Of a stretch of DNA of 64,000 nucleotides, positions 5,701-55,600 are shown one piece after another. The notes under the pieces were generated by a model. It was not told where the DNA came from. It ran no database searches and saw only the letters and a list, made by a program, of their open reading frames with translations. Origin of the DNA: Chiloscyllium plagiosum (taxonomy: Eukaryota); the NCBI RefSeq assembly GCF_004010195.1, contig NC_057749.1:16496524-16560523 (forward strand). Reading direction: 5' to 3'. The stretch's first letter is position 1. Each line of letters opens with the position of its first letter. Made by a program: the position numbers and the translations under genes.

Positions 5701-7761
5701 GTAATTTTGCAATTGGGGATAAGGTAACAGTAACAGGTAAACCTTTAAAAGCAAGGTTTAATTGACCTTATCAAATCGAAAGGAAATTGAGTGAGGTGGA
5801 CTACTTGGTAAGGACTCCAGACAAGAAGAAATCTCACAGAGTGTGTCATGTGAATATGCTCAAAAGGTATTTTGATTGGGAAGGAAAGCAAGAGGAGAAG
5901 GTGTTAATGATTACAGCACAGAAGGAAGAACCAAGCTCAGAGGATTCTGAATTGGACATTCCTCAAATCAAATTGGACAATGTGGAAGTTGTCAAAAATT
6001 GGGATAACTTATTGAGTTACCTTCCACAAGAAAATCAAAATGACATGAAAGAATTATTACTATCACATGGGGAGATATGCGGAAATAAACTGGGAAGTAT
6101 GAACCTAATTGTGCATGACGTAGGTATAGGAGATGCTGTTCCAATTAAACAACCTCCTTATAGGCATAACCCTGTAAAGTTGGCACAGGTTCAGAAGGAG
6201 ATAGAGTGCATGCTCCAAGATGGCATAATTGAAGTGAGTTAAAGTGACAGGAGCTCACCTATAGACATAGTGCCAAAGCCAGATGGTACCCAACAGTTAT
6301 ATGTGGACTATCGCAAAGTCAACGCTGTTACAAAGATTTAAGCATATCCAATTCCATGGTTGGAGGACTGTGTTGAAAAAGTGGAATAAGCAACTTACAT
6401 TTCTAAGTTGGACTTGTGCAGAGGCTACTGGCAAGTATCTCTGTCAGAGAGCAAAGGCAATTTCAGCTTTCGTAAAGCCAAATGGACTATGTCAGTTCAA
6501 AGTCATGCCATTTGGTATGAAAAACATTCCAGCCACATTTCAGAGACTGACTAATAAGGTCATTTCTGGATTACCCAACTGTGAGGTACATATTGATGAC
6601 CTGGTGATTTTTAGTCACACATGGAAGGAACATTTACAGCATTTATCGGACTCTTCGATCAACTTCGGAAGGCAGGCTTGGTGATAAACCTAGCTACAAA
6701 TGAATTTGCCAAAGCCCAAGTCACCTTCCTGGGCCATGTTATTGGACACGGAAGAATGCCCTCATGGGATGCAAAAATGAAAGTAATTGGGGAATTCCCC
6801 GCACCGTCTACAAAAAAAAGCAGTATTACGGTTCCTGGGGTTGAGTGGATTTTACTGAAAGTTTGACTTTAGCAGTGTGGCTGCTCCACTCACCGAATTG
6901 TTAAAAAAGGGCAAAAAATTTCAGTGGACAGTGGACTGTCAAAAGACAGTCTAAAAACTATGTTAACCACTTCCCCAGTATTAACCACACCAGATTACAC
7001 AAAGCCTTTCAAAGTGGCTATCGATATGGGTGTCAGTGCTGTGCTCCTGCAGGAGGATGATGAGAGAATAGGAAGACACCTCAGGCATTTTTCCAGGAAG
7101 TTGACATTCATCAACAGAAATATTCAATGGTGGGGAAAGAGACTTTAAGCTTGGTGTTGGCATTACAGCATTTCAGTGTTTATATAATCAGCAATGCATC
7201 TGAAAAAATGAGGAAACTAGTTCGAGGGTTGGGACTGAGACAGGGTGGGGGGAGGGGAAATGAGGAAACTCCCCCCACCCTGTCTCAGTCCCAACCCTCG
7301 AACTCAGCACCACCTTCCTAACCTGCAATCTTCTTCCTGACCTCTCCGCCCCCACCCCCACTCCGACCTATCACCCTCACCTTATCACCCTCACCTTAAC
7401 CTCCTTCCAACAGTCGCATTTCCAACGCCCCACCCCCAAGTCCCTCCTCCCTACCTTTTATCTTAGCCTGCTTGGCACACCCTCCTCATTCCTGAAGAAG
7501 GGCTCATGCCCGAAACATCGATTCTCCTGTTCCTTGGATGCTGCCTGACTTGCTGCGCTTTTCCAGCAACACATTTTCAGCAATGCATCTGAGACAATCG
7601 TAAACACTGATCATAACCCATTGACATTTGTGGAAGAATTTAAGGATGAAAATGCCAGACTGTTTAGATGGAGCTTGTTGTTGCAGCCGTTCACTTTGAT
7701 AATTGTGCAGGTGACAGGTCGCGGAAACGTGATTGCTGATGCGTTATCGAGACTTGAATGA
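2749..7761 (+). pseudogene. Decayed gag-pol: SCAN-like capsid (~3230-3710), Zn knuckle (~3890), protease (~4155), integrase (~4850-5500), RT (~6140-6850), RNase H (~7000-7761)
   Basis: CFNCNKVGH; LRDTGSSQ; HELPLGG..FYWPGL..C..CQ; IDCIGPLP; SDQGSNF; VDYRKVN; KLDLCRGYWQ; MPFGMKN; HIDDLVIFS; TDHNPL; NVIADALSR. Confidence 0.9.
7204..7580 (+). mobile_element. Penelope-like pLTR fragment with 5' inversion, inserted in RNase H
   Basis: 16-bp TSD tcagcaatgcatctga (7188-7203 / 7577-7592); hairpin at ~7219-7305; hammerhead core at 7488-7524. Confidence 0.8.
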
Positions 7762-19474: not shown

Positions 19475-20320
19475 GTCATAGAGTCATAGAGATGTACAGC
19501 ATGGAAACAGACCCTTTGGTCCAACCCATCCATGCCGACCAGATATCCCAACCCAATCTAATCCCACCTGCCAGCACCCGGCCCATATCCCTCCAAACCC
19601 TTCCTATTCATATACCCATCCAAATGCCTCTTAAATGTTGCNNNNNNNNNNNNNNNNNNNNNNNNNNNNNNNNNNNNNNNNNNNNNNNNNNNNNNNNNNN
19701 NNNNNNNNNNNNNNNNNNNNNNNNNNNNNNNNNNNNNNNNNNNNNNNNNNNNNNNNNNNNNNNNNNNNNNNNNNNNNNNNNNNNNNNNNNNNNNNNNNNN
19801 NNNNNNNNNNNNNNNNNNNNNNNNNNNNNNNNNNNNNNNNNNNNNNNNNNNNNNNNNNNNNNNNNNNNNNNNNNNNNNNNNNNNNNNNNNNNNNNNNNNN
19901 NNNNNNNNNNNNNNNNNNNNNNNNNNNNNNNNNNNNNNNNNNNNNNNNNNNNNNNNNNNNNNNNNNNNNNNNNNNNNNNNNNNNNNNNNNNNNNNNNNNN
20001 NNNNNNNNNNNNNNNNNNNNNNNNNNNNNNNNNNNNNNNNNNNNNNNNNNNNNNNNNNNNNNNNNNNNNNNNNNNNNNNNNNNNNNNNNNNNNNNNNNNN
20101 NNNNNNNNNNNNNNNNNNNNNNNNNNNNNNNNNNNNNNNNNNNNNNNNNNNNNCCCAGCACCGATCCTTGTGGCACTCCACTGGTCATAGGCCTCCAGTC
20201 TGGAAAACAATCCTCCACCACCACCCTCTGTCTTCTACCTTTGAGCCAGTTCTGTATCCAAATGGCTAGTTCTCCCTGTATTCCATGAGATCTAACCTTG
20301 CTAATCAGTCTCCCATGGGT
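19475..20320 (-). mobile_element. CR1-clade LINE spanning the assembly gap
   Basis: WIQNWLKGRRQRVVV...SGVPQGSVL; tail repeat gtcataga. Confidence 0.85.
19642..20153. other. Assembly gap (512 N)
   Basis: Run of N. Confidence 0.99.
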
Positions 20321-28541: not shown

Positions 28542-28691
28542 TCAAACCAGCCGGATGCGAAATGTGGAAATCTCCATCGGCCTCATGGAGACGAAGCTGT
28601 TGTTGAAGGGCTCAGTGGGGTACAGGAGGGACAAAGACACTGGCTGCACGCTCTGAATATCCAAGCCCTGAAAGAGACCCTCCAGTGATAG
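28542..28691 (-). CDS. MAN2A2: MAN2A2 coding exon 22 (terminal)
   Basis: [10 protein letters not shown]...[14 protein letters not shown], then TGA at 28544-28542. Confidence 0.94.
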   Translation of the reverse strand, partial: LSLEGLFQGLDIQSVQPVSLSLLYPTEPFNNSFVSMRPMEISTFRIRLV

Positions 28692-31600
28692 CTGCAGCAG
28701 AAAGAGAAGAGGCATGTAAGGTTGCAATCAACTTTTCCTTCAAGTCAAGCATCCAGTCAGAAATTATATTGAGTGACGTGAACCAAACAAAATGTACTGG
28801 TAAGGTTTTATAAGTTGCAAGACTCCCTCAAAAATTCTCTCTCTATTGTTCATGACAGGACCAGCACCCACCCATCAATTTCATATCAAGCTGAGACACA
28901 TGCACTGGAGTAGATGTTGTTGTCAGCTGAAATCCCATGGATGCCCATTGTTAAGTAGCAGAACTGACATGTGGGGAGCAGGAAGCTCTGGTTAATTATT
29001 TTTCTCAACTCCAGTATCCTTATTAGGCTGAGGGGACACGGGAGAATGGAGGAGAGAATGAGACACATTGGATTGCTACAGAGAGCTGTCAGATTTAATG
29101 GTCTGAATGGCCTCCATGCATAAAACTGAATCTTAACCAACCCATGTCATAAAAACAAATATTACCTAAAGTAGAGTGAAAAGCTCAGTATCAGGTGTTT
29201 CATACCTTGCCCTGGGTGGTACTGCAATTGAAACCCAGGTTCTTGGCCTCCAGCCCACAGTCAAATCCTTTCCGATGTAGAATTAGCGCCAACTCTAACC
29301 CGGGAGCAGAAATCACCTGCAACATAAATGACAGAGAGAATCATACAGCAACTGACTCACATTTCAAATCACAGCAGCCTGAGATCTGTTGCAAATTTGA
29401 AGTCAATTTTGTTCCACTGCTGCAGAGCTTAACAGCACTTGACAAAATCACAAACCCAGATAGCCAGGGTCTGGTGTTGAACGTAACTGCATCTTAGGAG
29501 GACAAAAGCTCCAAATTTCCAATCTGCAGAACCAACACTGCTCAGTGCTATTGGGAAAAAAAGAGAAATTAGTTAAGTTGCAGCACTGACGGCCGTTGCC
29601 AATCCACCATAACCTCTCACCTCAGACTGTAAGGTCCTCATATTAAGCATGTGGAAGTCACAGGGTATAGGAGCTGCAAGTGGACGCCAGCTTCTGATGG
29701 GTGGAACAGTCTGTGGCCTTGGAGTAACTGGCATCGCCAGAACCTCATGGTTCAGGTGCATCAAGGTCATGTGACTTAGCAGGGAGGGAAAGCTCACAGG
29801 CTGACTATCCTGAACCTGTAGAAATAGAAATAAGCCAGCCTCAGTTTGCTGTTGATCTGAGATTACCTGGTTATGCAAGAGGCTGACATAAAAGTGAGCC
29901 TGAGAGACTTAACATTTCACAAGTGCTTCAACAAATTCCCCCCTTAGTCCATCAGTGCAGGTCTCTCGGGAGACAAATGGTTCCATGGGTTAAATCATTC
30001 ACTTGGTCATCTGAGCATGAGTCCAGGCCTAAGTTTTGAGCTTCAAGATGGATTTGGGACAGTTTTACTCAAGCTAAAGTATCAGGGCAGACAACTTATA
30101 AAATAAAAATTAATCATGCTCCCATCAATTTTCAGATTTACAAGTTGCTGACACTAAGATGTCAGAGTTCTGATTTTAAGCTTTACCTCTTAATGAGGAA
30201 ACACCAAGAATCTACATGTATGAAATTCCAAAGCTTTAAACAGAACAAACCAGACAGTAAGAGATAATGATAGGGGATGGAATAGCTGAAATTTTGATGT
30301 CTAGATGGACAGGTCTGATGGGTCACAACATGGCTCACTGACATAGTTAACACTCAAATAAATGCCAAAAGGCTTTTAAACATGGCCACCACCAATCTCT
30401 CCTTCATTCAATATCCACATACAATACATAGGATAGAGTTCAAGAGGAGAAGCCACAACTGATGTTTTACCTTCCCTCAGCTCAAAAGGACACAGAACTA
30501 ATTATAGTAAGCGAAGCAATAACAGACTAAGATCATGTTACCTATTGTGGTATTGAGAGAAACAAATACATCTGCCTTTTGAATAAATCAGGTACCAGAA
30601 CAGAAAACCAGCCAGTTCCAATCAAAGAGAATGGGTACTTTATTAGGCTGGAATTTGGCTCAAAGTAGGGCATACTCAATAGAAACTAAATGACGTAGCA
30701 TGGACTCTGACTAGCATAGTCTATTTGAAAGAACTGTTCAGTATATAAGGCAGATTTATTGTTGTCAGGCATTGTGCCATAACACAGACCAGTTCAGAGC
30801 CTTACTTTGAGCACTGATGGACCTGCTCACTCATGATGCTCTGGGCCAGAGAACAAGCAGTAACGTAGTACTATTGCAGACCTACCCCTAAATAACCCCT
30901 CTGAAAAAACCCTTTGTTCTTCTGTAGCTTCCTTGCCTGGATCTCATCTAACGTGCTCCATCAACTCCAAAAACATGGGCAGCAGGGAATCAGAAGTGGA
31001 TAAGAAGCAGTGTGCACTGAGACAATATATAAACAGCTTGAGTTACAGAATGTACTGTGAGGTGCTTAATTTTTGTTAGCGTTTTCACCTCATTAATGGC
31101 TCATTATTCTGGGTCAGCAGTGCCCACTGATCAATAAGATGTGAACACTCTCAGTCTAGATCACAGATGAGCCAACTAATGTTATCAGGCGAGGACTACA
31201 GATGCTGGAGATCAGACTGGTGCTAGAAAAGCACAGCAGGTCAGACAGCATCCGAGGAGCAGGAAAATCGACGTTTCGGGCAAAAGTCCTTCATCCGGAA
31301 TGATAGCTCTCATTCCTGATGAAGGGCTCTTGCCCGAAACGTCGATTTTCCTGCTCCTTGGATGCTACCTGACCTGCTGTGCTTTTCCAGCACCACTCTA
31401 ATCTAGACTCTCATGTTCTTATCAGTCTCTCTCGCTCTCTCTCACATACTTTTCAGGAAGTTCCTGAACAGCAATCAGAGACTAGAAGACTGCAACCCTG
31501 GTTGATTTAAGCACATAAGCCCAGATGAGCTCCTGGTTAACAAATGAAACAAGACAGTTTATAGAGCGCTCACACAGATAGACAGCGACAACTACGAGCT

Positions 31601-34600
31601 ACATTTCATACTGCAGCTATGACTCACAGCACAGAGGTGGTCAAAGTTAATTTACAGATTACACTTTGACCCGGCCTCCTCTCTAAAAGGTTACCTCATG
31701 GGTGCTGGTCCTGCAAAGGATGGAAGCTGAGAGTGCCTGCAAGATGGAGTGCAGCCTTGACAGAAAGCCAATGTGCTGAAGAGGAGCAATGGGAATGGAG
31801 AAAACGATGAACATGAAGGAATGGGCAAGTATAACCATCTATTTATAACCCACAGACATGGAATAATTACACATGTACACTAGCATAAAAATACTACAGG
31901 TACCACACATTGCAAGCCCACACACATTTCTCAGCTTACAATCTGCATGGACACTATACCACAGATACGGCACTACACCAACACTAAGCAGGAGTGTACA
32001 CTGCAGCACACAGACACACACTTGCCTCACAAATACACCCCACCCCACCAGATGCTCATCAGCCACTCACCCTACAGATGAGATCATTTATATGCTCACA
32101 CTTGAATACAAACAGCACTGGTATCACATATGCACATACATGCAACTCATCACAAGACTCTCATGTTCCCACTCCCTGCAAACTTCCTTGCCAGTCCTGC
32201 TGACCACAAACCAGGCTACCCACTCCACAGGTTAAGAAAGTAACAAGCACAGGGTCGAAGCATCCGCAGACACACTGGGTACCATCCCAATCTCTACAGG
32301 TGCATACACACATAGCGCATCATAAATATACACACACCACTGCATGTCTCCCCACCAGCCAATACATCGACACTGTGCACTGCACAACTCAGCCTCTCGT
32401 GCGCATGCACACATACCCACATCAACATAAAAACGACCTTCCTTATCCACCCTACCCCTCATTCACCAATGTCCACAGTTAGTCCTGTTGATTCTTGCTG
32501 TGGAAGTTTAATGGGTATCTCAGCCCTCTGGAATCTTGCAAGCATCAGTGCTCAGTAAGGGCAGGCTATCTGGTTGTAAGCAGGCATACAGTTAAACCCA
32601 ATTTTGTCCTCACCTGAAATGCAAACTTTCCCATGGGAGTCACTGGAAGGGAAGTGCTGGCTATATCATTCCTGAAGAAGGGCCTGTGCCCGAAACGTCG
32701 AATCTCCTGTTCCCTGGATGCTGCCTGACCTGCTGTGCTGTTCCAGCAATAAAGTTTCAACTATATTATTTCACCCCTTTACAATCTGGACCAATGATGC
32801 CCTAAGCTGAGATCTGCTAATTTATCCCAGAACTTGGTTTCGACCCAAGATCTCTGGGCTGCAGTGGTGAAACAGCAAATCCAATGGTGCCTTCAACTGG
32901 ACTGCCACTGCAAATAAAACCACTCCTCTAGTATGTAAATCATAGACTAAGATCACATACAAGCAGGGGTTAAAAACAATTTAGTACTTTGTTTGATGCT
33001 GATCTCTTCTCCAGCAAGATACGGAATCTGTTGCAGGTCACTTTGTTGTCTTTTAGTCCTTGTCCCAAGCCCCGGTTGTCATCCTGCATGAGACGACGAT
33101 CCAGAATGACCTCCAATTCACCTGGGAATGACAGGACAAGAGATCCATTCAGCATTAAGGAGGAGTGAATGAAGGCGGTGTTTCTTTCTCAACTATAGTT
33201 TCTAGCCTCAGGGCTTGTCATCCATGTTCTCCATAGGACTCCTTACTTTTAACCCCAACAGCAGTGTCACTCTCACTAAAATCCCCCCACCCTGATGGTT
33301 ATTATCCACAAACTGATTCCTTGGGTCTCGACGAGTACAGGAGATGGAGAATTTGGGGGTTTCCACAGGTCCAATCCTGCTGTTACTCAATATCCAACCA
33401 GACACACTCTCACAACCAAGTCACTGGCAAGCAGGAAGCCTGTAACATTCTACAGAGAATTCTTTTTGTTACATCTTTGCTTTGCTCAGCCATGGCTGAA
33501 ATCAGATGGAAACTGCAGCCTGTGGTCCAGAGGAGGTGGTTGCTGGCAAGAAGTGCTGAGTCAGTAGAAACTAAAACTGATCACCTCTCCCCAAAATGTT
33601 CCAGTCTGTTTCACCTTGAGCCCCTCCCAAGACAGAAATAACTTTCCAAAATAAAACATGTCAGTTAAAGTCTAAATTATAAATTTGTAGAATCAAGGTC
33701 TAATTAGAAATAACCCCAAACCCCATGATTAGAAGAAATGAGGAGAATAGAATGCCCTGTTAACTTCCTCTGACATTCACTGGGCTGCTATTTCCATTCA
33801 CAGAGTAATGCTGGATTTGCGAGGATTGCATTTATCATGTTGCTGTGGGGCTGGAGAACAACAATTACTCTAAGAGGCACTGCCAGCAAATCAATTAGGA
33901 TACAACCAGTTTGCTCACCATTGTGAATACTCGACACACCCAGAGACTGTGCAGCATGTAGTGTCAGGCGGAATCGATCATCCTGAATGTAGGCCATGGT
34001 TGACATCGGGTAGAAGTTGGCCTGAAGGGGCAACTTCTGAAAATATTTTCTCGCTTGAATCTACAGGAAGCAATAAAAAAGCTTAAGAACAAGTTGAGAT
34101 CGATCCACAGTGCTGCAGAAAGATGACCTTGTTTTAAGTATAAGCACATTTTCCAAGACCAAACACAAGCAAATGAAATGGGAACAGATGGCCATTTGGC
34201 CCCCGAACCTGATCTGCCATTTAGTAAGATCTGGCTGATCTGTTTGTTTTGAATTCCACATTTCCATCAGCACAGATAACCTCAGCTTCCCTGATTAACA
34301 AGAATTTACTCACTTCTGCCTTCAGAGTCAAGAGAAATTAGGAACTTAAGGCTTATGCCTGAAACGTCGATTTCCCTGTTCTTCGGATGCTGCCTAACCT
34401 GCTGTGCTTTTCCAGCACCAGACTCTCAACTCTGATCTCCAGTGCCTGCAGTCTTCACTTTCTCCCACCCCTGCCTTCACGATAATTAATGACCCATCCT
34501 CCTTCACCTGGACGCAGAGAGTTTCAAATTGGCTCAAAGATTCACCTCAGCTGTCCTAAAAGGACTAGCTCCAGTTTTAAAACAGTGCCATCCCCCACCC

Positions 34601-37600
34601 TGATACTGGACTCAAACTAGAGGAAACACCCTTTCCATTTTCACTTTGTCAAGATCATTCAGAATCATATACACTTCGACCAAGTCACCCTTAAACACTT
34701 CTAAGCTCAAGTTGAAACAAACTCAATCTGTCCAACCTTTCCTCATAAGATAACACACTTACTCCAGATATTAACCTAGCAAGTTTCCCTCCAACCACCT
34801 CCATTTACATCTTCCCATGAATAAGGATGCCAAAACTTCAGCCAGGTGTGATTTCACTGATGCATGGTATAAATCCAAAAATGCTTAGCTTCAGTTATGT
34901 TTAATCCCTCTCATTGTGAAGGGCAGCATTCTATTAACATTCTTGATTACCATTTGTATTAAATGTATTAACATTTTGTCACTCATGCACTAGAACATGA
35001 AGATCTTTCTGATCCTCAGGCCAACTTCTACCCGATGTCAACCATGGCCTACATTCAGGATGATCGATTCCGCCTGACACTACATGCTGCACAGTCTCTG
35101 GGTGCTCACTTAAAATTTTCTACAAATGTGAACTTCATATTTTCCCCCATTATAGAACATCTGCCAGAATGGTGCCCAATGGCTCAACATATCTAGGTGT
35201 GCCTGCAAACTATTCTTCATTGTAGTTTATTTGCCTACCTATCTTGACGTTGTACATGCACTTAGTTCCGTGCTTTTGTTTCACTTATACCATATATTAT
35301 ATCTTAATACTCCCTAAAAACTGATGCATTAAAGAAATGCTCCAAATAGCATTACCAATCCCGTTCCACCCCCCCGCTTCAAAACACAAATTTTAACTTC
35401 AGAAATCAGAAGACCTTTCAATGCAAAACACCACCAGGGCCCTGTCAGGTAACATGGTGGATGTGTGGATATTATAGTGGGTGAAGATACTGGGTGAGGT
35501 GCAAATGGGAGATAGAGGTTGGGTGTCATTGATACACCGTGGCCACAAAATGTAGATTTAGGTCAGTGTATTCAGGACATTGTGAAGAGATGTTTTAATC
35601 ACATTGTTTGTTTATGTTCAGTAGTGATTATCACTCCCAATCAGCAAGAATTGCATGGTTTACAACCCTCTCCAAGACTTGATATTTCTGATTTACCAAT
35701 ATGATCTGGTCCAGGTGTACAATGGATAACATTTACTGTGCATTATTAGTGAAAAAGTTGTGTATCTGGAAGACAAAAACTCTAATTTTTGATTTTTAGT
35801 TCTGACTTCAGCTCCCAACTTCCCCCACCCCATTCCCCAAACCCTCATCTCTGCCATTATTTTGACCCGAATTTATCCTGCTCCACCCCACCATTTCCAA
35901 TCCTTTCTAATATGCAGCCAGAGATGACTCAACAGATTAACAGCATGATCAAAGACTGATGTGCACAGGACAAAGTCAATTGTTATACCAATGTTTAAAT
36001 ATTCTGTCATACATTTTAAACAATTGTGTGCTTTCCTTTTTCATGTCCACGTGAACTAATTATGCTGCATTTATATACTCCCTAAAATTACTGGGATGTA
36101 ATTACTGGGCAACAAGTTGAAAACCACCAATTTCCATTGTAAATGTGAACAAAAGAAATTGGCAATGGAATAATCGAAGACCAAAACTGAACAAATTTAA
36201 TAAAAGGCTTGTTATGGCCAAGAGACTTTACCAATAATTTCCAACACTACTTCTCCCATGTACCACACCTAAGCAATGGATATACCCATGCTGTGGAGGC
36301 AGTAAGGCTCAGTTTAGCGAGATTGAGATTGCCTCTCATTCCAAGAGTCAATTATTTTCTGAAGGAGACAGTCAGGGTTGTCTTCCCTGTCCAAAGAATC
36401 TGGAACATGGAGGCACAGCTTCAGGGTAAGGTGCCAAACATTTAGGGCTGAGGTGAAATTCATTCACTCTGAAATGAGTGACTTGGAACTCTCCACCCCA
36501 ACAGTTGCTGATATAACAAAATTTTTCAATGTTCTCAGTCTCAGCCCTGATCTCTCAGAATCAAAAAAGGAATGAGGGGCAGGCGGGAAAGTGGAATCAA
36601 ATCAGTTATTAATCAGATGTCATCAATGGTAGAGCAGGCTCAAGTGGCCACATGATCTACCCTTGCTGCTATTTCTTACACCCTTATCAATCTTGACATA
36701 AGAGATCCACTACAAAATAATGACTACACTTGGATATATGTAACAAGTTACCACATATCAATGCCTCAATGATTTGAGTGAACACGTAAGCCCCAAATAG
36801 CAGCAAGACGAGCAAATGGTTTGTGTGCTTTTAGTATTATTGGTTAATAATGTCCACGAAAGCAGAAGACTGTCCAATAATCTAACAGGCAGGCTGATCC
36901 ACAATTTAATGCATCCTCGAAGAGGTCATTGCACAGGAGACTTTAAATATTACCCTCTATCCCTTCCTACACTGAACTTCCAAGGAGGGGCGAGAATGTG
37001 TAACCATTTGTATAGTAATTTTACACCAAGTTACCTGAAACCCATTCAAATCTGTGTAGAATGTGTCTCCACTTTCAATATTGGTGGACAGCCTCATTGC
37101 CAGCTCTCGGTTTATCTGGTCATGAATGTCAACAACAACGGAAACATCCAACGAAAGCCCCTCAACTCCTGCCAGCACAAGAACACACGAGTAGATTATC
37201 ACTGCACCACATTTAACACTTTGCGAACAATTCACTGGAATCACTTATTTTTGTTATATTCTGTTCTAATGCCAGTGGATATCAGTTAACTTGGCACTGA
37301 CAGTGCAGGACTGTTGGACTGGATGACTCAGTACCAGAATGGATCCACATTTATTCACCAAGTGAGAGCAATGAAAGTTTTAACCAGCAAAGCCCTTTTC
37401 CAGAGCAGACCACTGGAATCACATTTCCACCCAAATTCACTTCCTACCGTCAGTATTTCATTAGATATATACAGCACTAGAAGAGGATCACCATAGTGAA
37501 TTTAACTGTCTGCCATGATAACACACAGCAATTGTTACTTTTGTACATTAGCTTTCATATGGGACCTTTAACATTAATTCTTTACAATTCCCACCTCCCA

Positions 37601-40600
37601 TTGACAACAGTGGCTTTAAAACTGTCCCCTTCTGCACTGTGCAGCTATTCAGAACCTGTTGCAGACAGGGGTCCAAGTAAATGTCAAAATGTAACAGGTC
37701 AACCTAAGTAGTGAAAAGTCTGCTGTGTTGAGGTCATGGTGCTTTGCTAAACCAATCCATGAAACAAAATTGCAAGTATTTGACAATTAAAAAATTACCA
37801 CAAAAGATGCCTGACTGAAAACTGATGTGTTTAACTTTGTTCTTCAGTGAAAGGAACTTGCCACCCTAACTGAAGTGTAGCGCATAAGATTTTAGGGATC
37901 TTGTAAAACACTTACTGACATGATCGAACAAGCTAAGTCATCAAATCAACACAAGATAGACATCAAGTACTGGATTACACCTCAACATAACACATCAAAA
38001 TAATACATAAACAGGTACACATTATATTGCACACTAGGCAGCAGAGTGGCAAACAGATTTCAATCTGGAGATTCAATCCTAATTCCCTTCCTAAGTGCAT
38101 TGTGGGTCAACCCACAGCAGGTGGACAATAGCAGTTCAAGAAATCATCTCACCACCACCTTCAAAGGCAACTAGGGACAGACAATAAATGCTGGCCAGCC
38201 AATGACATCCACATCCCACAAATAAATAAAACAAAATGGTCAAAGGTATTGGAGAATAAATGGGAGGTTTGAGTGGGGAAGAAGAGAGAAGCCTTGAAGT
38301 GTACAACCACAGGTCTCTGAAAATGGTAGAACAGGTAGATAAGGTGGTAAAGGCAGCACATGGGATACTTTCCTTCATTGGGCAAGGTAATGAAGATAAC
38401 AGCAGGGATGTAATGGGGTATTATTTTGATTCTGGTTAGGTCATGGCTGGAGTTTTGTGGACAGTTCTGATTGGTCAGAAAGGTCAGAATTGTTTGAGAG
38501 CAGAAAGAGTACAGAGGCGATTTACAAGAATGTTGCCAGGGTTTGAAAATTGCAGCTAAGATTGGAAAAGCTACCACTGTTTTCCTTACAACAGATGCTC
38601 AAGGATTGACTTGATTGAGATGCATAAAATAATGGGAGACTTCGATAGAATGGAGGGGGAAAAACCTGTTTCCCCCTAATGGGGGAGTAAATTACCAGGG
38701 GCCACAGAAAACTTATGATTGACAGAAAAATCTGATGGAACATGAGGTTAAGTTTTTTCAATCAGAAGGTGGTGAGTGTCTGCATTTCACTGACCAGCAC
38801 AGTTGAAACGGAAACCCTCAACTCATTTAAAAGGAATTTGAATCTGCATCTGAGAGCTTCTCGCCGGAAAGGCGAATGACCAGATGCTAGAAAATGTGAT
38901 TAGAACAGGCAGTAAGGTTTCTTCAGCTGCCATGGACATAATGGGTTGTATGGCCGCCTTCTGTACTGTAACTATTCTATGTTGCCACCATGGTTAAATT
39001 ATAGAGTGGGGGATGGGAGAAAATTAACAATAAAACATGAAAAGCCTAGATATAAATGACAGTGCAAAGTAAACTGTAATGTCACACATTATTACCTCAA
39101 GACTGAGCATTAACATACACATGATATTGATTACTGTGCAAGTTTTTTTAAATCACTTGTTTATTGCAAAGGTTATGGGTCAGAATGCTTCACTTGCTGA
39201 ATTAACCTCACCCCTGCCTCCGAAATCCTCAGACCCACATACTCCCTCCTTTATCCTCTTAAGGAAGATTCATCACTCCAGCTCCCCCTTCAACTCATTC
39301 TCTCTCGTCAGGCACACTACAGATTTTTAAACACCACAGTTGACGTTACCTAAACGGTTTCTTGATTTTATCTTTAATTTTTATATGACGTGACAGTGCA
39401 GTTCAACAGCAACCCTTTCACCAGTCAACAAACATTCAAAGTGTACTAAAGGATATTAGTACATAACTTAAGCAGGAGGTGCCGTTCTTCAGTTGAAATG
39501 TTAAAGCCCAATTCATGAGTGAGATCAAAAGATGCCAGTGCATTGTTAAAGAGGAAATAGTTCTCCCTGTGTTCTGGCCAACATTCCTCCATCAGCCAAT
39601 CCCACATAAAACACACTAACCAGCTATTTATATTGCTTGCTGCTAATGGAACATTGAGCAAATCGATATTCATGTTTCCCTACAAAATAAAGTGACCGTA
39701 ATATGAGAGTAGAATAATGCACGATTTCCTAACTTAGTGCAATATTACATCTGCAACTTTTAAATTAAAGTACATACCAGAATACAAGGACATGGCAGAG
39801 ATTGGAGAGGTGTTTAGTGTACGGTGCGTTTCATTTCACCATGCTGCTGTCTTCAGAACACAGGAAGGAATGTCTTTGGAAATCAATCAATGGCTATTTT
39901 ATCTAGAGCAAGAACTATCATTCATGTCTGCTTAGACAGTTCCATCTAAAGGCTATGGGGGGCACCCAATACCTGACAGCCATGATCACGCTGCTTTTTA
40001 AATGTTTACAAACAAAAAGACTTGCATTCCTGTAGCACCTCATGCCATCAAGAAAATCCTAAGGCACCTTAGCGCTTCTTTAAACATGGCATCTTTAAAA
40101 TAGTCACCGCTGTACTGTAGCTGAGGAGAAAGTGAGGTCTGCAGATGCTGGAGATCAGAGATGGAAATGTGTTGCTGGAAAAGCGCAGTAGGTCAGGCAG
40201 CATCTAGGGAACAGGAGAATCGACGCTTCGGGCATCAGCCCTTCCTCAGGCCATTCTCCTGTTCCCTAGATGCTGCCTGACCTGCTGCGCTTTTCCAGCA
40301 ACACATTTCCATCGCTGTACTGTAGCTGCCAAACTGTGCACAGCATGCTCTTACAAGCAGTGACATGATAACGGCGAGGTAACTTGTTTGAGCTATGGGG
40401 AGGTGAGTGATAAATACTGTTCAGGACATCAGCAAAAACCCCCGTATTTTCTTCAACATTGACATCTGACGAAGGGGCTGACCAGATGTCTGTTTAATGC
40501 TTCATCCAAAGGATGGCATCTCTAAAAGTGCAGCATGCCCTCAATACTGCACTGTAAGCATGTCAGGTTTCCATGGCAAGGTCCTTTGAATGGGGCTCGC

Positions 40601-46600: not shown

Positions 46601-49600
46601 CCTCTGAGAAAAAGAACAGGAAATGACATCACTACCCCAAAGAAAGGCAAACATATAAAATAGAAAGCAGGAATCATCAGCAGTGCTTTGTCCAGAGGCT
46701 CACTGAAGATGTTACCTAGTATAGTGACGAAATGTCGAAAACGAACCTTCCAGCTCAGTGAGCAAATCAATATATACACACAGTCTCAGAAAACCTAGCA
46801 TTTATACAAAATTCTATCTCAGCTCATAAATGTCATGTGATCCCAAGGGTTACAATCACAGAGGAGAAAGTGAGGACTGCAGATGCTAGAGATCAGAGCC
46901 GAAAATGTGTTGCTGGAAAAGCGCAGCAGGTCAGGCAGCATCCAAGGAGCAGGAGAATCAACGTTTCGGGCATAAGCCCTTCTTCAGGAATCCCCATGCC
47001 TGACCTGCTGCGCTTTTCCAGCAACACATTTTCAGTTACAATTACAGATAAAGGAAAGGCCATTTAAGACTGAGGAGGAGAGATTTCTTCAGCCAGATAG
47101 CGGTGAGCCTGTGGAATTCTCAGCCACAGAGTGGTTGAGGCCACTGAATGCTCTCAAGGAGAGAGATAGAGTTCTTCGGGCTAAAGGGGTCAAAGAGGAC
47201 AAGGATGGAGGGCCAGGAACAGAATACCGATTTAGATAACTAGCCACGATCTCACAGAATGGCAGAGCAGGCTCAAAGGACTGAATGCTCCTATTCCTGC
47301 TCCTACATCTCTCCAGGCTTTCCATTTTAGCATGAGAAGCAGGAACATTAGCTTTGTTTACTTGGCGGCATTAAGCTGCTAAAACTGAAGTTCAGTGTTC
47401 TTCATAAATCACAATAACTTTGGTATTGTTTGGCACAGAAACATTCATATGAAAATTAAAAGTAAAAGATTTGTTTTAAATTTGGAGGTCCTCAACCTTC
47501 AGCATTTGCAAACCTGTCTTGCTCACTCCATACTAGACAAGCAGTGACCTAGTTTATATGGATTTCTTGGTTAAGTTAAAGTTATACTAAAAGATAATTA
47601 TTTGGCAAACATAAAATGGAAGTTTATTTCATTTCACAGAGGTGCACAGTGACACGTACCGGATTCCATAGTCAACAACCACCACTTCTTTTGAGGTGCC
47701 AGTAATGGCATCATGGTGCTGGAACAAGCCTATGTTCCGGCGAGCTTCTGTTAGTGAGCTATAATCAGAAACTGGGTATTTACTGTCTGCACCAAAGCGG
47801 CGAGCGTGATTTAAGGCCAAGCTGTAGAGGATCTCAGCTGCTCTGGAATAAAATTAAAGGCTTTTTATTTAAGGCTCACGAATTATTTAATAAAAATGCC
47901 AGTGCACATTTATTGACACAGAATTTTATAGAAGGAAGACATTCAGCTCAATGTAATTCAGCCAGTTCAGAGCTTAATCCCAATCCCTTATACTCGCCCC
48001 ATTTAGCTTAAACATCACCCTTTGTAATACATTTATCCATTTTCTTATTTGAAAGTTACTCTGCTTCCACCATTCTAAAAGTCCTCTGCTTTTTTTTAAA
48101 AAAGCATCTCCTTTTGTTCTATAGAAAGGAGCCCAAGTTTCCATACCTTCTTCTGAACTAAAATCTCCCACCGATAAAGCTTCCCTGCATCCTTTCAATG
48201 AGCTGATGTAGTTCCTAAAGTTCAGAGCCCAAATTCCTATTGTTTGTTTAGCAAAACCTATCTTATTCTCCGTATTTCACTAACACTATCTATCACTCCA
48301 GGTCCACCCATCTCTGTCCTCTTAGATTCTTGTCTCTCCCTCCAAGACTCAATTATTAATTAGTAATATCTTTTAACACTCTTTTTACTCTTTTCTACCA
48401 CATTAGAAAAAAGAACTTTAAATACAACTGCTTACAAACATAGCCCCTTACCTGAGGTGTGATTCCAGGACTCTGTCTAGATTCTTATAAAAGGGTCGGG
48501 AGGTAAAATATCCACTCCAATAATGGTCCTCACGGTCAGCATAGGTGAAGAAGTCTCCACTGAGGATAGGGTAGGATGGAGGCTTGCTACCTGGGCTAAC
48601 ACCGTATTTTTTATAGACAGCATCAAAGTACTCAGATAGCGTTCCAAACTGCACCTGGTAAATAAATGGACATTCAGAACAAAGCAAAGACAGACACCTA
48701 CATATTGGAGACACAGTTTCTCTAAAAATTCCCAACCCCCAAGACATTTCCATCTATCAACTTAGGTGCATTTTATCACAGATACACTTTCAACACCTTT
48801 CCCAGCAAACTTCATTTGCATGAGAATCTGACATTCAAATTTGGAAGACATCGCAGCTAAGCCAAATTTGCTCAAGCTTCCAGGTATGCCCAGAAACCTC
48901 AGAACCTCTCCTTGCCTAAGCTGCTACAATCAACTGTTTCCTCTCGGTTGCCCTGCCTGGCGAGCTAGATAGCTCAGTAGATGGCTCATCAAAGCAGAGA
49001 TCTGCCTGCTCTGTACAACTGGTAAACTGCTGGAATCCAGACAGCTAGTCAAAGTCTGTGAGAAGATTTGTAGCTTGGGTGCTCGTGGTTGTGGTTCTGT
49101 TCACCGAGCTGGGAATTTGTGTTGCAGACGTTTCGTCCCCTGTCTAGGTGACATCCTCAGTGCTTGGGAGCCTCCTGTGAAGCGCTTCTGTGATCTTTCC
49201 TCCAGCATTTGTAGTGGTTTGAATCTGCCGCTTCCGGTTGTCAGTTCCAGTGGTCGGTATATTGGGTCCAGGTCGATGTGCTTATTGATTGAATCTATGG
49301 ATGAGTGCCATACCTCTAGGAATTCCCACTTATTATCTCCCACTTATTAGGGCAAATTTGCTTTTGGATCAATACCGGAAAAAGTCCAAGTTGTTCTCTA
49401 TTCGGCTTGTCCTATTATAGTAGTGTTGTCCAGTCGAATTCATGTTGCTTGTCATCTGCGTGTGGCTACTAAGGATATCTGGTCGTGTCGTTTCGTGGCT
49501 AGTTGGTGTTCAGCTATCCTTAGTAGCCACACACGCAGATGACAAGCAACATGAATTCGACTGGGACAACACTACTATTATAGGACAAGCCAAACAGAGA

Positions 49601-52600
49601 ACAGCCAGGGAATTCCTAGAGGCATGGCACTCATCCACAGATTCAATCAATAAACACATCAACCTGGACCCAATATACCGAGCACTGCAACGGACAGCTG
49701 GAACTGACAACCGGAAGCGACAGATTCAAACCACTACAAATGCCGGAGGAAAGATCACAGAAGCGCTTCACAGGAGGCTCCCAAGCACTGGAGGATGTCA
49801 CCTAGACAGGGGACGAAACGTCTGCAACACAAATTCCTAGCTCAGCGAACAGATCCAGACAGCTATATTTCTCCCTTGACAGAGACACTTACTTGCACAT
49901 GAAGCTCAGGGTGAGAGTTCATGTAGTCAAAAAGTTTTGCATAATTCTGGAATTGCTGGTCCCACTCCAGAGCATTGTCATAACGAAAGTCATCTCCAAC
50001 TGGAATCAGGACCACTTTGCTCTTGAACAACTTGGACTTTTTCCGGTATTGATCCAAAAGCAAATTTGCCCTAATAAGTGGGAGATAAGAATCTGCACTG
50101 AGAATGTAACAAACACATGTGGAAGGAAGACAAGAACAAGCGTTAGCATGCTTTCTTATCAGTAATAAGAAAATGATACTGTCAATTCACTGAACATTTC
50201 CTCTTAGGAAAGTAAAATTACTTCCAGAAAGCAGCACCATGGGATATGAAAATGAGGAGTAAGCAACCTCGTTAAACAAATCAAAATGAGATGTTATAAA
50301 TACATCTGCACAGACTTCTTTCAACCTTTCCCATTATAAATTGCCCAGTTCATTGTTACTACATATATAAATGTCACATGGTAAATATTTCCCACTAGTG
50401 GAGGTGCTATAGTGTGACCAGCATCAACAGCAAGTCATCAAAGTTGGACAAATTTAGACAGATTATTTCCAAGGTGACAGTGTATGTGGAAATTTATAAT
50501 GGAAGCAGATATAGATAAAATCCAGGACATTAAAACAGCAACTAAATAATACTTGCACAACTTGTTCTAATTATGTATGCCCTCTAACAAATTTATTTTC
50601 ACTGAAATGCAGAGAAGTTGCAATACAGAATTTGCCATTTAACTCAACCAGCCATGTCAACCTTTACCCTTCTCGTGGGAACATTGCTATAATCATATTT
50701 CAATACATTCTTACCACGATGTATTTTCTTTCATCCACCTAACCAATACCATCTTTAAGACTGATTTTTGCCTGAATCACCAACTGAATTTCACAGGTTT
50801 GTAACTCAAGAAACTTCAAGCGCATCTTCCTATTTCCAGTGCTCCCTTATCCCAGAACCCTCAATCACTTATAATAATCTGCTATCTATCCGACCCCACT
50901 TTCTTTTAAAAGCACTTCAATCATGTTGCCCCATAATCTGCTATGTTCAGGCCATTTTTTTTTTAATTCCATTTTTTTTTATATACTATGTTTAAACCTT
51001 CAACTGCCTATATATTAAAAAAAAGGAGTCGCGACAGCATGCCTGGAGATGTTTGAACTGAACAACTAGTGCAGTCATGGCGAGATTGCTTAACACCCAG
51101 TACATCAGCCAACCAAAAAGAGAAAATACAAGACCACAATGAGTAAATGTTACCTGGGGCAGAAAGATTCCAGATCTGATGTTTCTACGTGGAATTAGCT
51201 GATTTGAACTAGATAGCAGAATCCAGCTCATTAGTAATCTGTTACCTTTTGTTTTTACCTGTCTCTGGGCCCCATCTCCACATAATCTATTCACTGGCAC
51301 AACCCCCCTATCATCAGTATAAAAATGATCTTTTTCAGATATTCAGTTCTGACGAAGGGTCACTTAAAACATCTTCTCTGTAGATGCTACCATACCTGCT
51401 GAATTTTTTCATCACTTTTTGTAGCGGAATTCTACAACTGGTATAAAAAAAACTTGGTGGATTTAAATCAAGAAGAATAATCAATAACCAAGTTGCAATT
51501 CTACTTAAGGTTTTTAAATCAATGGTGGCAAATAGGAAAACTGCACAAGAAAGACACCCTAAGCCAACTATTCTAGCACAACGATCAAGAATTCAGGCAG
51601 TCCATCACAACATCCAACTGGCTCTTCAATTATTGCAGGGAATTTCACTTCCAATATCATCCTTTCCTGCCTCCAACATACCTGTTTCACAAGTTGATCG
51701 CATGAAGAACTTCCGACAACAGTAGGGTATGAACCAACAGCATGGAAATTCAACAGAAGATGTGGAGATTTTCAAACAAAATAAATTTTGAACAAAAAAG
51801 CAGTGCTCTCGTGATGACTGCACAAAACTGACCAAACAACCATTCAGTCCAGGATCTGGATTAGTGGTGCTGGAAGAGCACAGCAATTCAGGCAGCATCC
51901 GAGGACAGGCAAAATCGACGTTTCGGGCAAAAGCCCTTCATCAGGAATAAAGGCAGAGAGCCTGAAGCATGGAGAGATAAGCTAGAGGAGGGGGGGGGTG
52001 GGGAGAGAGTAGCATAGAGTACAATAGGTCAGTGGTTCTTGTAGAGAGAGGAGGAAAACTTCTTCAAGGCAGGCATCCTTGCAAGAGGATTCGCAGTAGG
52101 GTTAAAATCAACGAGGTAAAAACAATGACTGCAGATGCTGGAAACCAGATTCTGGATCAGTGGTGCTGGAAGAGCACAGCAATTCAGGCAGCATCCGAGG
52201 ACAGGCAAAATCGACGTTTCGGGCAAAAGCCCTCCATCAGGAATAAAGGCAGAGAGCCTGAAACATGGAGAGATAAGCTAGAGGAGGGGGGGGGGGGGGA
52301 GAGAGTAGCATAGATTTTACAGTTCCTGCGGTGGCAGGGGAAAGTGCCAGGATGGGAGGGTGGGTCGTAGGGGGGCGTGGACCTGTGCCAGGATGGGAGG
52401 GTGGGTCGTAGGGGGGCGTGGACCTGAACCATCAAACTCCAACCAATTATAGCCTCGTGAAAATGGATAGACTGGTGTTCATAGCTACAAGTCAAGTAAT
52501 GGCGAAAATACACATACCAGTTAATGCTGACTAGTTGGGATGAAGATTAAGCATTTCCCTCAAAAGATAAAATTAAAGCTTTATCCTATGAGTAACAAGA

Positions 52601-55600
52601 AAGAGCAAAATAAGAGAAGAGGAGAGAGACAGATCAGTACAGTTGTCCATTTGGTTAGTACCTACCTCTCTGCTACATTGATATTGGTTATTGGTTTTGG
52701 TGGGATTTTCCACGGACAGCTGATTCGCCCTCCAGGGAGGCGCCTGAAGTCAAACTGGCAGCAGATTTTAGGATCAGGTCCACAAGTATGAGGGACATCA
52801 TAACTGTAGAACGGCATTAGATGACAGAAGATATCTGTGCTTGAGTCAGTGTCTGAAACAAGATGTGGAGAATAAACCAAAATGCTCACTTTATACAGAA
52901 ATTGATTTTTAAAATATAAAACATTTAAAAAAAACATTAACAGGATGGCTCCAGCTCCCACAAATTGTGCAACTTTGTAGAGATAAAGTAAAGATTGTTG
53001 GAAGTGCATAGGGGCAAATGAAAGAGATAGCCCCTTTCTCAGAAGCTCTGGCCCCTGTGTGTGTTTCCAGTTGTGGGGGGTTATTTCAAATTATCATTCA
53101 CAGAACTTCCTTACAACGCTGCTTTCACCTACCCCAAGTCTGCCTCCACATGAATTCCAAATTTTTGGTGGCTGAAAAGTGTTTTTTGATGGAGTAATGT
53201 ACTCGTTGGATCAGCATACTGGTTAGGTTCGCTCGCTTGAGCAGATAAGACATGGTTGAGCTGTGTCCAAAAGGATCAATCGCCCAGCCAGATTTGGGAA
53301 TCACTCCTGCAAATACAAAGTATAGGAACATCTGATTAGGATGAACATGCTAACAAAAAGGTGATTCAAGATAATTTAGACACGCGGAGTGAGTGGACAA
53401 ATATATCATGCAGTTATAGGCAAAACAAAAGGCAGAATACACTTAACGGTGATAGATTGAGAAATGTTTATGTATAAAAAGACCTGGGATCCTTGTACAC
53501 CAATCACTGAATGCAAGAATTTACTCGCAGCAAGAGTCAACAAGGCAAATAGTCTGTTGGTCTTCACTGCAAGAGAATTTGAGTACACAAGCAAAGGTAG
53601 TCTCTGGGCTGTACAGAGCCTTGTTGAAACCAAATCTGGGAGTACTGTACAGAGGTTTGGTCTCCTTACTCAAGGAAACATGTGCTCTCCATTGATGGAG
53701 TACATCAAAGATTCACCAGACAAATTTCTAGGATTGCAGATTTGTTGAATGAGGAGAGATTGGATTAACTATATTTGTTTTCTTTGGAGTTCATAAGGAG
53801 ATAGGATTCCATTGAAACATATAAAATTCTGACAGGGCCAGACACACTTGTTAGGATTAGGATCCTAGCCGAAAGAACACGGTCTCTGGATGCAGAGTAG
53901 ACCATTTAGAACTGAAAAATTTCTTCAGTTTTGTGAGCCTGTGAAATTTGCAACACCAATAAGATGGTGGAGACCAAGTCACTGAATACATTTAAGGAAG
54001 AAATGGACAGATTGCTAGGGACTAAATGCTTCGGGGAGATGGGGAAGAGTACGGAGCACAGCATGGAAAGGATCAGCCATGATCATATTCTACAGTGGAG
54101 CAGGCTCAATGGCCAAATGGCCTACTCTTGCCCCTATTTTCGAAATATTTAACTTGTGCTGTAACTGTTCCAGCAGTGTTTATGGAGGGTGCTGTAGAGG
54201 AAGCTTTAACTTTGTACTGAACCCCAAGCCATATGTTTTCTAGGAGTACTTAATGGGGACAGTGTAGAGGGAGGTTTCTGGATCTAACCCCACATTATTC
54301 CTGCCCACTCACTGTTTGATGGGACCATGCAGTGAGTTCTATTGGCAACACTTTACCATGTAAAGATCAGTGGTGACAATGGGAAACATTTCAGGATTAA
54401 CACCCCATAACATGTGCAAAATTCACACCAAAAAGTCTCAAGTCCATAAAAGTACTGCTATGTCAACTGCACAACTCATCAGCATGGACTCGTACCAATG
54501 TTTTTCTCCATCCACTGATGTCCTTCGATTAGCTGGTCAATCATTGCAAAATAGTGCGCATTGGCTTCATCTGTCATGACCCAACCTCCTGTCACAAACT
54601 CCAACTGACCATTAGCTGCCAATCTGGTGACCAAACCAAATAACACATATTCAAATAAATGTCCATCTAGTGAGCAGCATATATTAAACTCAAGTTATTA
54701 CTCAAAAACAGCCCAATACAAGTGAATTAATTCTCAGAAGCTTGCTGCTGAGATTAAACACCATCAATACCCATTTCACTTCAGCAAAGTAACAGACTAA
54801 TAATGCTTCTATCGAATTAATTCTGATTACAATTGGCCCCAGCACCCAGGAAATGAGATGAGGAAAAGAATGCAAAAATTTGCATCAGCCTCCAGCAACC
54901 TCTGCTGGGGCAGGACCCAGGTGATCTACGATGCTTCTGTAAATCAAGAGCCTGCCACTTGATCTTGGCTTGATGATTGCTTGTCTAGGTAAACTCTGGG
55001 AGGGGGCACTCAGGCCTGTGGAACCCTTGCAAGCATATCAGTGCCTTCATCCAAAAGAATTAATTTAAGCATAGCCAAATGCCAGATTGTACCTGCGGAC
55101 AGCAGCCCTTTTCTGAGTGTCGATGTTGTCCCACCATTTGGAGAAGAATGAGATTTCTGCCCAGATGAAACGGCGCTTTGGGTCCTCCTGTAGTTTCAGC
55201 AGCATGTTATTCAGAATATGCTGTGTCTGGTCCTGGTAATATTTGTCAAATGTTTTTATCCAGCCTATTCAGAAATAAGAGTTTTGACTATCAGGTTCTT
55301 GTTGCTTTTTCAAATCATTCAGAAATAATCCTGAGTATTTTACATGCAGTGCTACTTCAGAGTGCAACAATGTTGCTATAACATAGCACTTGCAACCCAC
55401 TTGCAAACAAAATCCTGTAAACTACAAATAGATGAATGATAAGGTAATCCGTAACGGCCCAGGTATCAGAACTGGTTGCTTTAGCCCTTCCATACTCAAT
55501 AATGAAACATCTGACACCTACTCTAACCAGAGGAGGCAGAGACACCCTCAGTTTAATTTCTTAGCTAAAAGACCAGCAGCGCAGCACACCCTCACATGGC

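Follow-up and report, generated by a model that had tools for sequence, protein, structure and literature searches.

Two predicted minimal hammerheads in a Penelope-like repeat within an alpha-mannosidase 2x intron of Chiloscyllium plagiosum

Introduction

Penelope-like elements (PLEs) carry minimal hammerhead ribozymes (min-HHRs) with two catalytic boxes, a G10.1-C11.1 pair, no helix III, a palindromic sequence at positions 15.2-16.2 and a short, poorly defined helix I (PMC4209133). These motifs have been argued to act only as dimers; single motifs did not cleave, and dimers and trimers cleaved little (Cervera and De la Pena 2014, PMC4209133). When two units form a double hammerhead, the boxes and A15.1 of one unit (A) join U16.1 and C17 of the other (B) (Forster et al. 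1988, cited in PMC4209133), and helix I is built from the 5' strand of unit A and the 3' strand of unit B (PMC4209133). Insertions of PLEs show partial-tandem pseudo-long terminal repeats (pseudo-LTRs, pLTRs), 5' truncation, an inverted truncated 5' copy, a tail of 30-40 bp and, close to the 3' end, a hammerhead (Craig et al. 2021, PMC8557442). Here we describe a tandem pair of such hammerhead motifs in a 64,000-nucleotide (nt) stretch of the Chiloscyllium plagiosum genome (contig NC_057749.1, 16,496,524-16,560,523; hereafter the window), where it lies in an intron of MAN2A2, the gene for alpha-mannosidase 2x. The genome searched comprised 3.56 Gb.

The min-HHRs of PLEs (2014), the animal non-LTR retrozymes (2020) and the derivation of retrozymes from PLE terminal sequences, the pseudo-LTRs (Li, Clavereau and Pollet 2026, bioRxiv 10.64898/2026.07.22.740005), are already published. 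One sampled Chondrichthyes genome holds such elements, with a mean consensus of 363 bp, and cleavage was obtained in one of nine Xenopus dimers (bioRxiv 10.64898/2026.07.22.740005). The only result of our search of the literature on hammerheads of shark Penelope elements was a review from 2017; Chondrichthyes families may be named in the supplements of the 2026 preprint.

A first-pass annotation of the window had described the pair as a retrozyme-like cassette from which transcription of MAN2A2 could cleave the intron or release an RNA of about 296 nt. The kind assigned there, a PLE pLTR of retrozyme-like form, is right, and a palindromic ACGU replaces stem III in each repeat. We find that the locus is very probably a single, fairly young insertion of a high-copy PLE into the alpha-mannosidase 2x intron, with the hammerhead pair carried along as a passenger of low expected activity.

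Results and Discussion

Two minimal hammerhead motifs 296 nt apart

The presence of two direct min-HHR copies on the minus strand, one with an intact and one with a CTGATGG core, was confirmed in the sequence, as was the reported spacing of 296 nt between their predicted cuts. The downstream core (minus strand, 51944-51917) reads CTGATGA-A-GGGC-TTTT-GCCC-GAAA-CG-TC and is intact. The upstream core (minus strand, 52240-52213) reads CTGATGG-A-GGGC-TTTT-GCCC-GAAACGTC, with A9 changed to G. The ranges first given for the cores, 51948-51913 and 52244-52209, are these same cores plus 4 nt on each side. Cleavage is predicted after GTC, at 51917/51916 and 52213/52212. Both motifs lie in a direct repeat (51849-52018 and 52145-52314) of 96% identity over 170 nt, and the interval first annotated (51850-52425) nearly coincides with the entire insertion (51849-52427). 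A relaxed core pattern matched the window eight times against 0.46 expected, a number reached in 0 of 100 shuffles, so that the core pattern in the window is not due to chance.

The motifs are like the PLE min-HHR (PMC4209133) in their CUGAUGA and GAAA boxes, in the single unpaired nucleotide between A9 and G10.1, in the G10.1-C11.1 pair, in the absence of helix III and loop 3, in the ACGU palindrome and in the short helix I. The C3 U4 G5 A6 N7 G8 A9 and G12 A13 A14 boxes are complete in the downstream copy, and the upstream copy departs from them at A9 only (G). Helix II (GGGC-UUUU-GCCC, with G10.1-C11.1 as closing pair) was predicted in every fold; it has 4 bp and a UUUU loop, compared with 7-8 bp in the Schistosoma families (PMC4209133). 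It is invariant across subfamilies, and no covariation can therefore be counted. The unpaired nucleotide after A9 is an A here and, in the genome listing, in nearly all copies, with G in few. A15.1, U16.1 and C17 (the cleavage-site H17) are all present in GAA-A-CG-U-C, and the palindromic A-C-G-U (15.2-16.2) stands in both copies. As A15.1 and U16.1 are merely 2 nt apart within one copy, they could pair only between two copies.

Helix I is weak. Its only contiguous pairs are G1.1-C2.1 and A1.2-U2.2, after which comes U.U; complementarity is present farther out (CAGGC/GCCUG and UUCAGGC/GCCUGAA), and changes of G1.1 to A among copies are uncompensated. Minimum-free-energy folds of either copy, of the pair and of the whole tandem gave helix II only and no hammerhead junction, as calculated with nearest-neighbour energies, which cannot model the hammerhead core; one fold buried UGAUG against CGUCG. 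The ACGU dimer helix was not formed in a cofold of the two hammerhead regions, which relies on the same energies and cannot judge the core either.

The Rfam hammerhead models (Hammerhead_1, Hammerhead_3, HH9 and HH10) gave no match in the window at gathering score and none at E<=10 over 51400-52900, as would be expected, since these models require helix III and the motif lacks it. Six weak Rfam matches, to small nucleolar RNA and long non-coding RNA models (E 2.5-6.5), were rejected as chance.

A high-copy Penelope-like family

The exact pattern CTGATGA-N-GGGC-NNNN-GCCC-GAAACGTC gave 10,655 + 10,780 = 21,435 matches in the genome, and the reversed pattern used as a control gave 0. At least 21,435 intact cores are thus present here, compared with roughly 4,000 in the coelacanth and 9,000 in Xenopus (PMC4209133), and the host here is a cartilaginous fish. 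A 301-nt query (window 51850-52150, most of the unit) had 2,213 first-look candidates in the genome, of which the 40 that were scored showed 91-98% identity; an internal 40-mer matched 2,049 times with up to two mismatches. Hammerhead-bearing 3' parts are about ten times as frequent as internal parts, an excess expected from 5' truncation. Two contig runs, compared with 51600-52700, showed only that the repeat is very abundant.

We sampled the first 30 intact-core loci of contig 1 in genome order, an unselected set, and 30 loci found by the internal 40-mer. Positions in these loci are given on the 296-nt unit, counted from cut site to cut site. The copies show variable 5' truncation, frequently right before ATTC-CTGATGA, as well as head-to-head inverted 5' copies and head-to-tail copies of 1.3-2.3 units. 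Among 38 sampled intact-core copies judged by eye, about one third end at unit positions ~57-68 and most others near 98-100; the two 3'-end classes differ by about 35 nt, which is consistent with the 30-40-bp tail of PLEs. A fixed start of the element at unit position 210 was rejected, since the loci concerned read N from there on; N runs adjoining a C-rich stretch create a false fixed 5' border at this point. Such N runs border the C-rich stretch (unit ~210-228) or cover the open reading frame (ORF) side in several loci (L007, L010, L017, L021, L023, L027, L031, L033 and L073-L080), and these runs are either assembly gaps at a homopolymer or masked stretches.

Copies whose unit homology starts at position 178 have further upstream sequence in common. 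Upstream of the hammerhead module at one locus (L016:1540-1872) lies the tail of an ORF (..NIIYCIRCSRCGLLYIGETGRLLAERFREH..) that, with one stop read as X, scored 25.6 bits against Pfam GIY-YIG PF01541 (cut-off 22.6, E 1.6e-5). A search of the whole genome with the Pfam GIY-YIG profile gave one weak match, with 150 of 14,403 candidates scored. The hallmarks of PLEs are present in the form of partial-tandem pLTRs, 5' truncation, inverted 5' copies and a 30-40-bp tail. Judged by these sequence features, the hammerhead family belongs to a Penelope-like element.

The family resembles the GIY-YIG PLEs of the Neptune and Poseidon type (Craig et al. 2021, PMC8557442) in its GIY-YIG ORF tail and Cys-rich linker, in its pLTR partial tandems, 5' truncation, inverted 5' copy and tail, and in its 3' hammerhead. 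It differs in that the window copy is non-autonomous, and the family is known here from the ORF tail, as the stretches upstream read N in the loci used. The position of the motif at the 3' end, in the pLTR of a GIY-YIG-encoding PLE, is that of the published min-HHRs, as is the occurrence of thousands of mostly solitary, truncated copies, some of them close together on opposite strands (PMC4209133). The idea of a distinctive cassette at MAN2A2 did not hold, as its core is one of 21,435 copies and its architecture of partial upstream copy, full unit and tail is that of a standard PLE insertion.

To follow the core in copies not selected for it, we used 81 tail-anchored copies, in 40 of which the core was recognisable and in 18 intact. 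Substitutions relative to a reference copy were counted in the 25 tail-anchored copies that had a recognisable core and retained the 32 nt upstream. CpG positions differed from the reference in 27 of 175 cases (15%). At non-CpG sites, 7 of 575 positions differed in the core and 26 of 750 in the upstream 32 nt, the latter largely at two subfamily-diagnostic sites. Copies decay once inserted, and they do so fastest at the three CpGs inside the core.

It could be held that the hammerhead-like strings are a product of chance, or purely structural features of the repeat that were never ribozymes, a reading in line with the missing Rfam match, the weak helix I and the folds that lack a hammerhead junction. 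We regard it as very unlikely. All invariant core positions are present, and the motif is of a class published from the terminal repeats of all PLEs examined in PMC4209133. Changes that recur in subfamilies, in the window and the fetched loci, lie in loop 2 (TTTT, TTAT, CTGT, TCAT, TCTT) and at the free position N7 (T or A), with changes at core and helix II positions found also in individual decayed copies. The 21,435 core matches against 0 for the reversed pattern argue in the same direction.

Inheritance of the CTGATGG core

The first-pass annotation had left open whether the change in the upstream core was a selected or a neutral inactivation at this locus. We fetched 11 relatives (L070-L080), a set chosen as matches with an upstream partial unit and not at random. 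CTGATGG was found in the upstream hammerhead of all 11, together with two linked markers, a run of 13-14 C without the A (C14 in the window copy) and CCATGTTTCAGG; the downstream hammerhead was CTGATGA in 10 of the 11. Three relatives continue upstream into the 3' untranslated region (UTR) of the PLE, where the window copy has a deletion. The 3' flanks differ among all 11, which makes these independent insertions, and the variant and its markers, common to all of them in unrelated 3' surroundings, point to inheritance. CTGATGG is, on this sequence comparison, inherited from the source element; an origin in place at MAN2A2 was rejected on account of the linked markers, and the choice between selected and neutral inactivation at the locus falls away.

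With the rest of the core intact, A9G occurs 196 times in the genome, compared with 229 for A6G and 21,435 for the intact core, and the variant is thus neither enriched nor depleted. CTGATGG was also seen on other backgrounds, in a second lineage (L002, L004 and L053) and in L056.

These data bear on the proposal that the pair is an exapted, host-selected intronic ribozyme that regulates MAN2A2 processing, like the conserved intronic hammerheads of amniotes. Its position in the sense orientation near a 5' splice site and its intact downstream core are the only points in its favour. Identities of 91-98% between this copy and many dispersed ones indicate a young insertion, its variants are those of a mobile subfamily, and no Rfam hammerhead family matches it, the conserved intronic ones included. 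We consider exaptation extremely unlikely.

Expected cleavage of the pair

A9 is an invariant position of the hammerhead core. In a double hammerhead formed by the two copies, the intact downstream core would serve the upstream cut at 52213/52212, and the downstream cut at 51917/51916 would suffer from the A9G change in the upstream core. The downstream site had been suggested as the place to look for nascent RNA ends, and it is the cut that the dimer model predicts to be impaired. Because each core would serve the site of the other unit and one core is A9G, two efficient cuts are unlikely, and since release of the 296-nt RNA needs both, clean release is unlikely as well.

The structure of genomic copies also bears on this point. 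Each copy of more than one unit was templated by an RNA with an uncut internal site, and 60-100 nt are kept beyond the last cut in all copies, so that cleavage is at best partial in those RNAs that are reverse-transcribed. Such forms probably arise when the template of the PLE reverse transcriptase is multimeric or circular, as the literature proposes, and the hammerheads probably serve the processing of the element's own RNA and not the host gene.

RNA reads from a single-cell polyA library, of which about 2% was read, were compared with 51600-52700; a library of this type is unsuited to showing cut ends. Of 552 reads, 548 matched only part of the stretch, 98% ran into unlike sequence, and both strands were represented; running into unlike sequence indicates that the reads derive from other copies. 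None of the 552 lay on the unique flanks within 51600-52700. No pile-up of ends was seen at either cut site, in a library that is incapable of showing such ends. There was no backward joint among the 15 of 30 joints that were listed, and reads across the unit junction are indistinguishable from transcripts of tandem DNA. Loose read ends at 51948/51949 and 52114 correspond to the common 5'-truncation point and to the long-tail 3' terminus of other copies.

We next consider whether genomic copies begin at the predicted cut. The first 30 nt after the cut are preceded in the genome by C 5,111 times and by another base 716 times. Eight loci with A at -1 were found among the first 100 listed, and in five of these a direct copy starts exactly at +1, beside an unrelated flank or an inverted truncated copy; the remaining three represent a point mutation, an internal duplication of 17 nt and an inverted junction. 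In a small tail-anchored sample, further boundaries lie at about +12 to +17, -19 to -25 and -32 to -37. The starts at +1 are possibly a footprint of reverse transcription of self-cleaved RNA, and they were seen without a positional control. Copies starting exactly at the +1 cut site are L081-L084, L088 and L055. The non-C base before +1 is mostly G (about 60 of the first 100 listed), and tails with this G are probably a subfamily with the 17-nt internal duplication (..GCCTGTCCTCG|GATTTTGCCTGTCCTCG..), as in L024 and L085.

The reading under which the pair works as a retrozyme-like cassette holds that a double hammerhead forms when MAN2A2 is transcribed and cleaves the intron, releases an RNA of about 296 nt for circularisation by tRNA ligase, or both, possibly affecting MAN2A2 expression. 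It draws on the sense orientation and on the distance of about 240 nt to the 5' splice site, on the tandem min-HHRs with their ACGU palindromes, on a length within the 170-400-nt range of animal retrozyme circular RNAs (PMC7229834) and on those family members whose start coincides with the cut site. Against it stand the A9G core, which makes two efficient cuts improbable when each core serves the other unit's site, the two contiguous pairs of helix I and the folds without a junction. Published min-HHRs cleave poorly (PMC4209133), and eight of nine Xenopus dimers did not cleave (bioRxiv 10.64898/2026.07.22.740005). Every genomic copy of more than one unit, the window copy included, derives from an RNA with an uncut internal site, and sense cores within MAN2A2 are not depleted (4 sense versus 2 antisense, a tiny sample). 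Taken together, we think a working cassette improbable.

The hammerhead pair at MAN2A2 is, in our view, most likely a passenger. Its two motifs could pair as a double hammerhead in the sense pre-mRNA, and low activity would be expected in view of the weak helix I, the poor cleavage of published min-HHRs and the A9G change in the upstream core. If any cut occurred, it would be at 52213/52212, served by the intact downstream core, and not at 51917/51916.

Several observations weigh against so low an estimate. Two min-HHRs on the same strand in one transcript, an intact downstream core and an ACGU palindrome in both copies are what dimer activity requires. The impairment by A9G is a prediction, and a literature search on the effect of this change in hammerheads found nothing relevant. 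At non-CpG sites the core is somewhat better conserved than the upstream 32 nt (7/575 versus 26/750). At five of the eight loci with A at -1 the copy begins right at the predicted cut, as it would after reverse transcription of a self-cleaved template, again without a positional control. Moreover, some vertebrate dimers cleave well, namely those of the axolotl (Cervera and De la Pena 2020, PMC7229834) and a REP4 dimer of Xenopus (Li et al. 2026, bioRxiv 10.64898/2026.07.22.740005).

Relation to retrozymes and double hammerheads

The window copy is like the animal non-LTR retrozymes (PMC7229834; bioRxiv 10.64898/2026.07.22.740005) in having an ORF-less unit of about 300 nt, one type I hammerhead in each unit if the A9G core is counted, head-to-tail copies and an origin in PLE terminal sequences. 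In the retrozymes described in 2020 the hammerheads are canonical, with loop-loop contacts or else a short helix III, and the elements have long arrays and circular RNA expression (PMC7229834), whereas the window family has the minimal PLE hammerhead and arrays of at most about two units in our samples, and is known here from DNA. The 2026 definition of an 'active' element asks for a hammerhead in every unit (bioRxiv 10.64898/2026.07.22.740005), and the window copy would fall outside it if A9G is not accepted. Self-cleaving double hammerheads are known from the avocado sunblotch viroid and newt satellite 2 (Forster et al. 1988, cited in PMC4209133). They are alike in that an intermolecular or inter-unit helix substitutes for an unstable or absent helix III and that two composite active sites are formed. 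They differ in having a 2-bp helix III, a better helix I and cleavage shown by experiment, while the window family is known from sequence alone.

As far as its sequence tells, the locus is an ordinary passenger insertion of an element type already known, and its self-cleavage is a prediction. MAN2A2 itself matters little in this respect, being the site of one passenger among tens of thousands, and the literature on minimal PLE hammerheads and the ORF-less forms derived from them goes back to 2014. The family, on the other hand, is a natural data set on whether PLE hammerheads cut in vivo and what for. It offers at least 21,435 intact cores, a traceable subfamily that continued to transpose with one A9G core, and copies whose 5' end lies at the predicted cut.

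A wider proposal is that the PLE min-HHRs of this elasmobranch are active in vivo as inter-unit dimers, such that the family spreads through self-cleaved, possibly circular unit-length RNAs and sense intronic pairs nick host pre-mRNAs. We judge this unlikely, if slightly less so than a working cassette at MAN2A2. Were the dimers active, the copies that start at the cut site and the insertions of more than one unit would be explained, and the MAN2A2 pre-mRNA would be nicked at 52213/52212, about 450 nt into the intron. Cleavage of sense intronic pairs would affect thousands of host introns, and the orientation bias of intact relative to decayed cores would give a genome-wide readout of ribozyme activity.

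Anatomy of the insertion and the host gene

The features of the insertion and the flanking exons are listed in Table 1. The 3' boundary at 51849 was set from the extent of the repeat and by comparison with other copies. The stretch matching 52427-52315 runs on into a GIY-YIG-type ORF in two other copies (L029 and L005), and the linker read from it is the Cys-rich one found in L029 ahead of the GIY-YIG domain. This ORF remnant also contains two exact tandem copies of a 41-nt sequence, at 52344-52425. At the deletion junction, 52315/52314, the GIY-YIG domain and the greater part of the 3' UTR are missing. The 296-nt unit is likewise an internally deleted PLE, with its junction at 177|178, where other copies hold from 96 to about 400 nt of PLE sequence. 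A target-site duplication was sought by eye (5' flank ..ACTGTAAAA and 3' flank ACTGAATGG..) and none could be defined, because the 5' stretch proved to be PLE ORF sequence.

Table 1. Positions in the window of the parts of the insertion and of the two neighbouring coding exons.
Feature	Position	Strand	Basis
Whole insertion, a 5'-truncated, internally deleted, more-than-unit PLE copy, ~579 bp	51849..52427	-	Unit mapping; upstream homology to ORF regions of L029, L005 and L018
PLE ORF remnant, endonuclease-linker (Cys-rich)	52315..52427	-	96-100% DNA identity to L029 and L005
Partial upstream unit (positions 195-296 of the unit) with the CTGATGG hammerhead at its end; predicted cut 52213/52212	52213..52314	-	Unit mapping
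Complete ORF-less unit of 296 nt between the two cut sites, ending in the intact CTGATGA-A-GGGC-TTTT-GCCC-GAAACGTC	51917..52212	-	Unit mapping
3' tail (unit positions 1-68), short-tail class ending ..ATCCAGA	51849..51916	-	Unit mapping
MAN2A2 coding exon 7	52665..52853	-	Protein match and tblastn; GTAGGT 5' splice site after the exon
MAN2A2 coding exon 8	49869..50072	-	GH38 match and tblastn; downstream end of the host intron

Exons of the GH38 N-domain flank the insertion region on both sides, on the minus strand. The exon at 52853-52665 matches, at 94% identity, shark proteins that bear the name alpha-mannosidase 2x, as do all of its best named vertebrate matches. A tblastn search with P0005, an alpha-mannosidase 2x of 1170 amino acids, aligned its residues 14-1170 with the minus strand between 62970 and 28545 and set the host intron between coding exons 7 (ending at 52665) and 8 (starting at 50072). 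The insertion begins about 240 nt into this intron, measured from the 5' splice site. The statement that the hammerheads are sense to the MAN2A2 pre-mRNA and lie in intron 7 is correct when coding exons are counted, as we do here.

Two antisense tblastn matches were found on the plus strand, at 49349-49417 (MAN2A2 residues 420-442, 74%) and 35017-35142 (residues 940-981, 64%). Each lies near the true MAN2A2 exon for the same residues, and both resemble small inverted duplicates of exon fragments in intronic sequence. A run of 512 N stands at window 19642-20153, downstream of the MAN2A2 coding exons, the last of which to be mapped ends at 28545.

Other copies of the family

Further copies lie inside MAN2A2. 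At 31199-31397 the hammerhead-plus-tail module forms a head-to-head inverted pair, with one core at 31273-31297(-) reading CGGATGA and GGAC and the other at 31316-31340(+) intact, an inverted 5'-truncated arrangement typical of PLE insertions. A sense copy of a diverged subfamily (46846-46991, minus strand) reads CTGAAGA-A-GGGC-TTAT-GCCC-GAAACGT followed by T, so that GUU replaces GUC. More core-like or tail-only copies were seen in the window at 1374-1508, 7492-7572, 32668-32748, 34371-34453 and 40139-40304.

At one locus elsewhere (L060:1567-2300) the element is broken at unit position 177 by a nested insertion with a reverse-transcriptase-like reading (..LPGPDGIYSRILWEGREEIAEPLALI..), which we take to be that of a long interspersed nuclear element (LINE). 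Finally, sequencing runs of three other organisms contained 12-30% of the sampled words of 51600-52700, which is consistent with a repeat family shared near-identically with related species.

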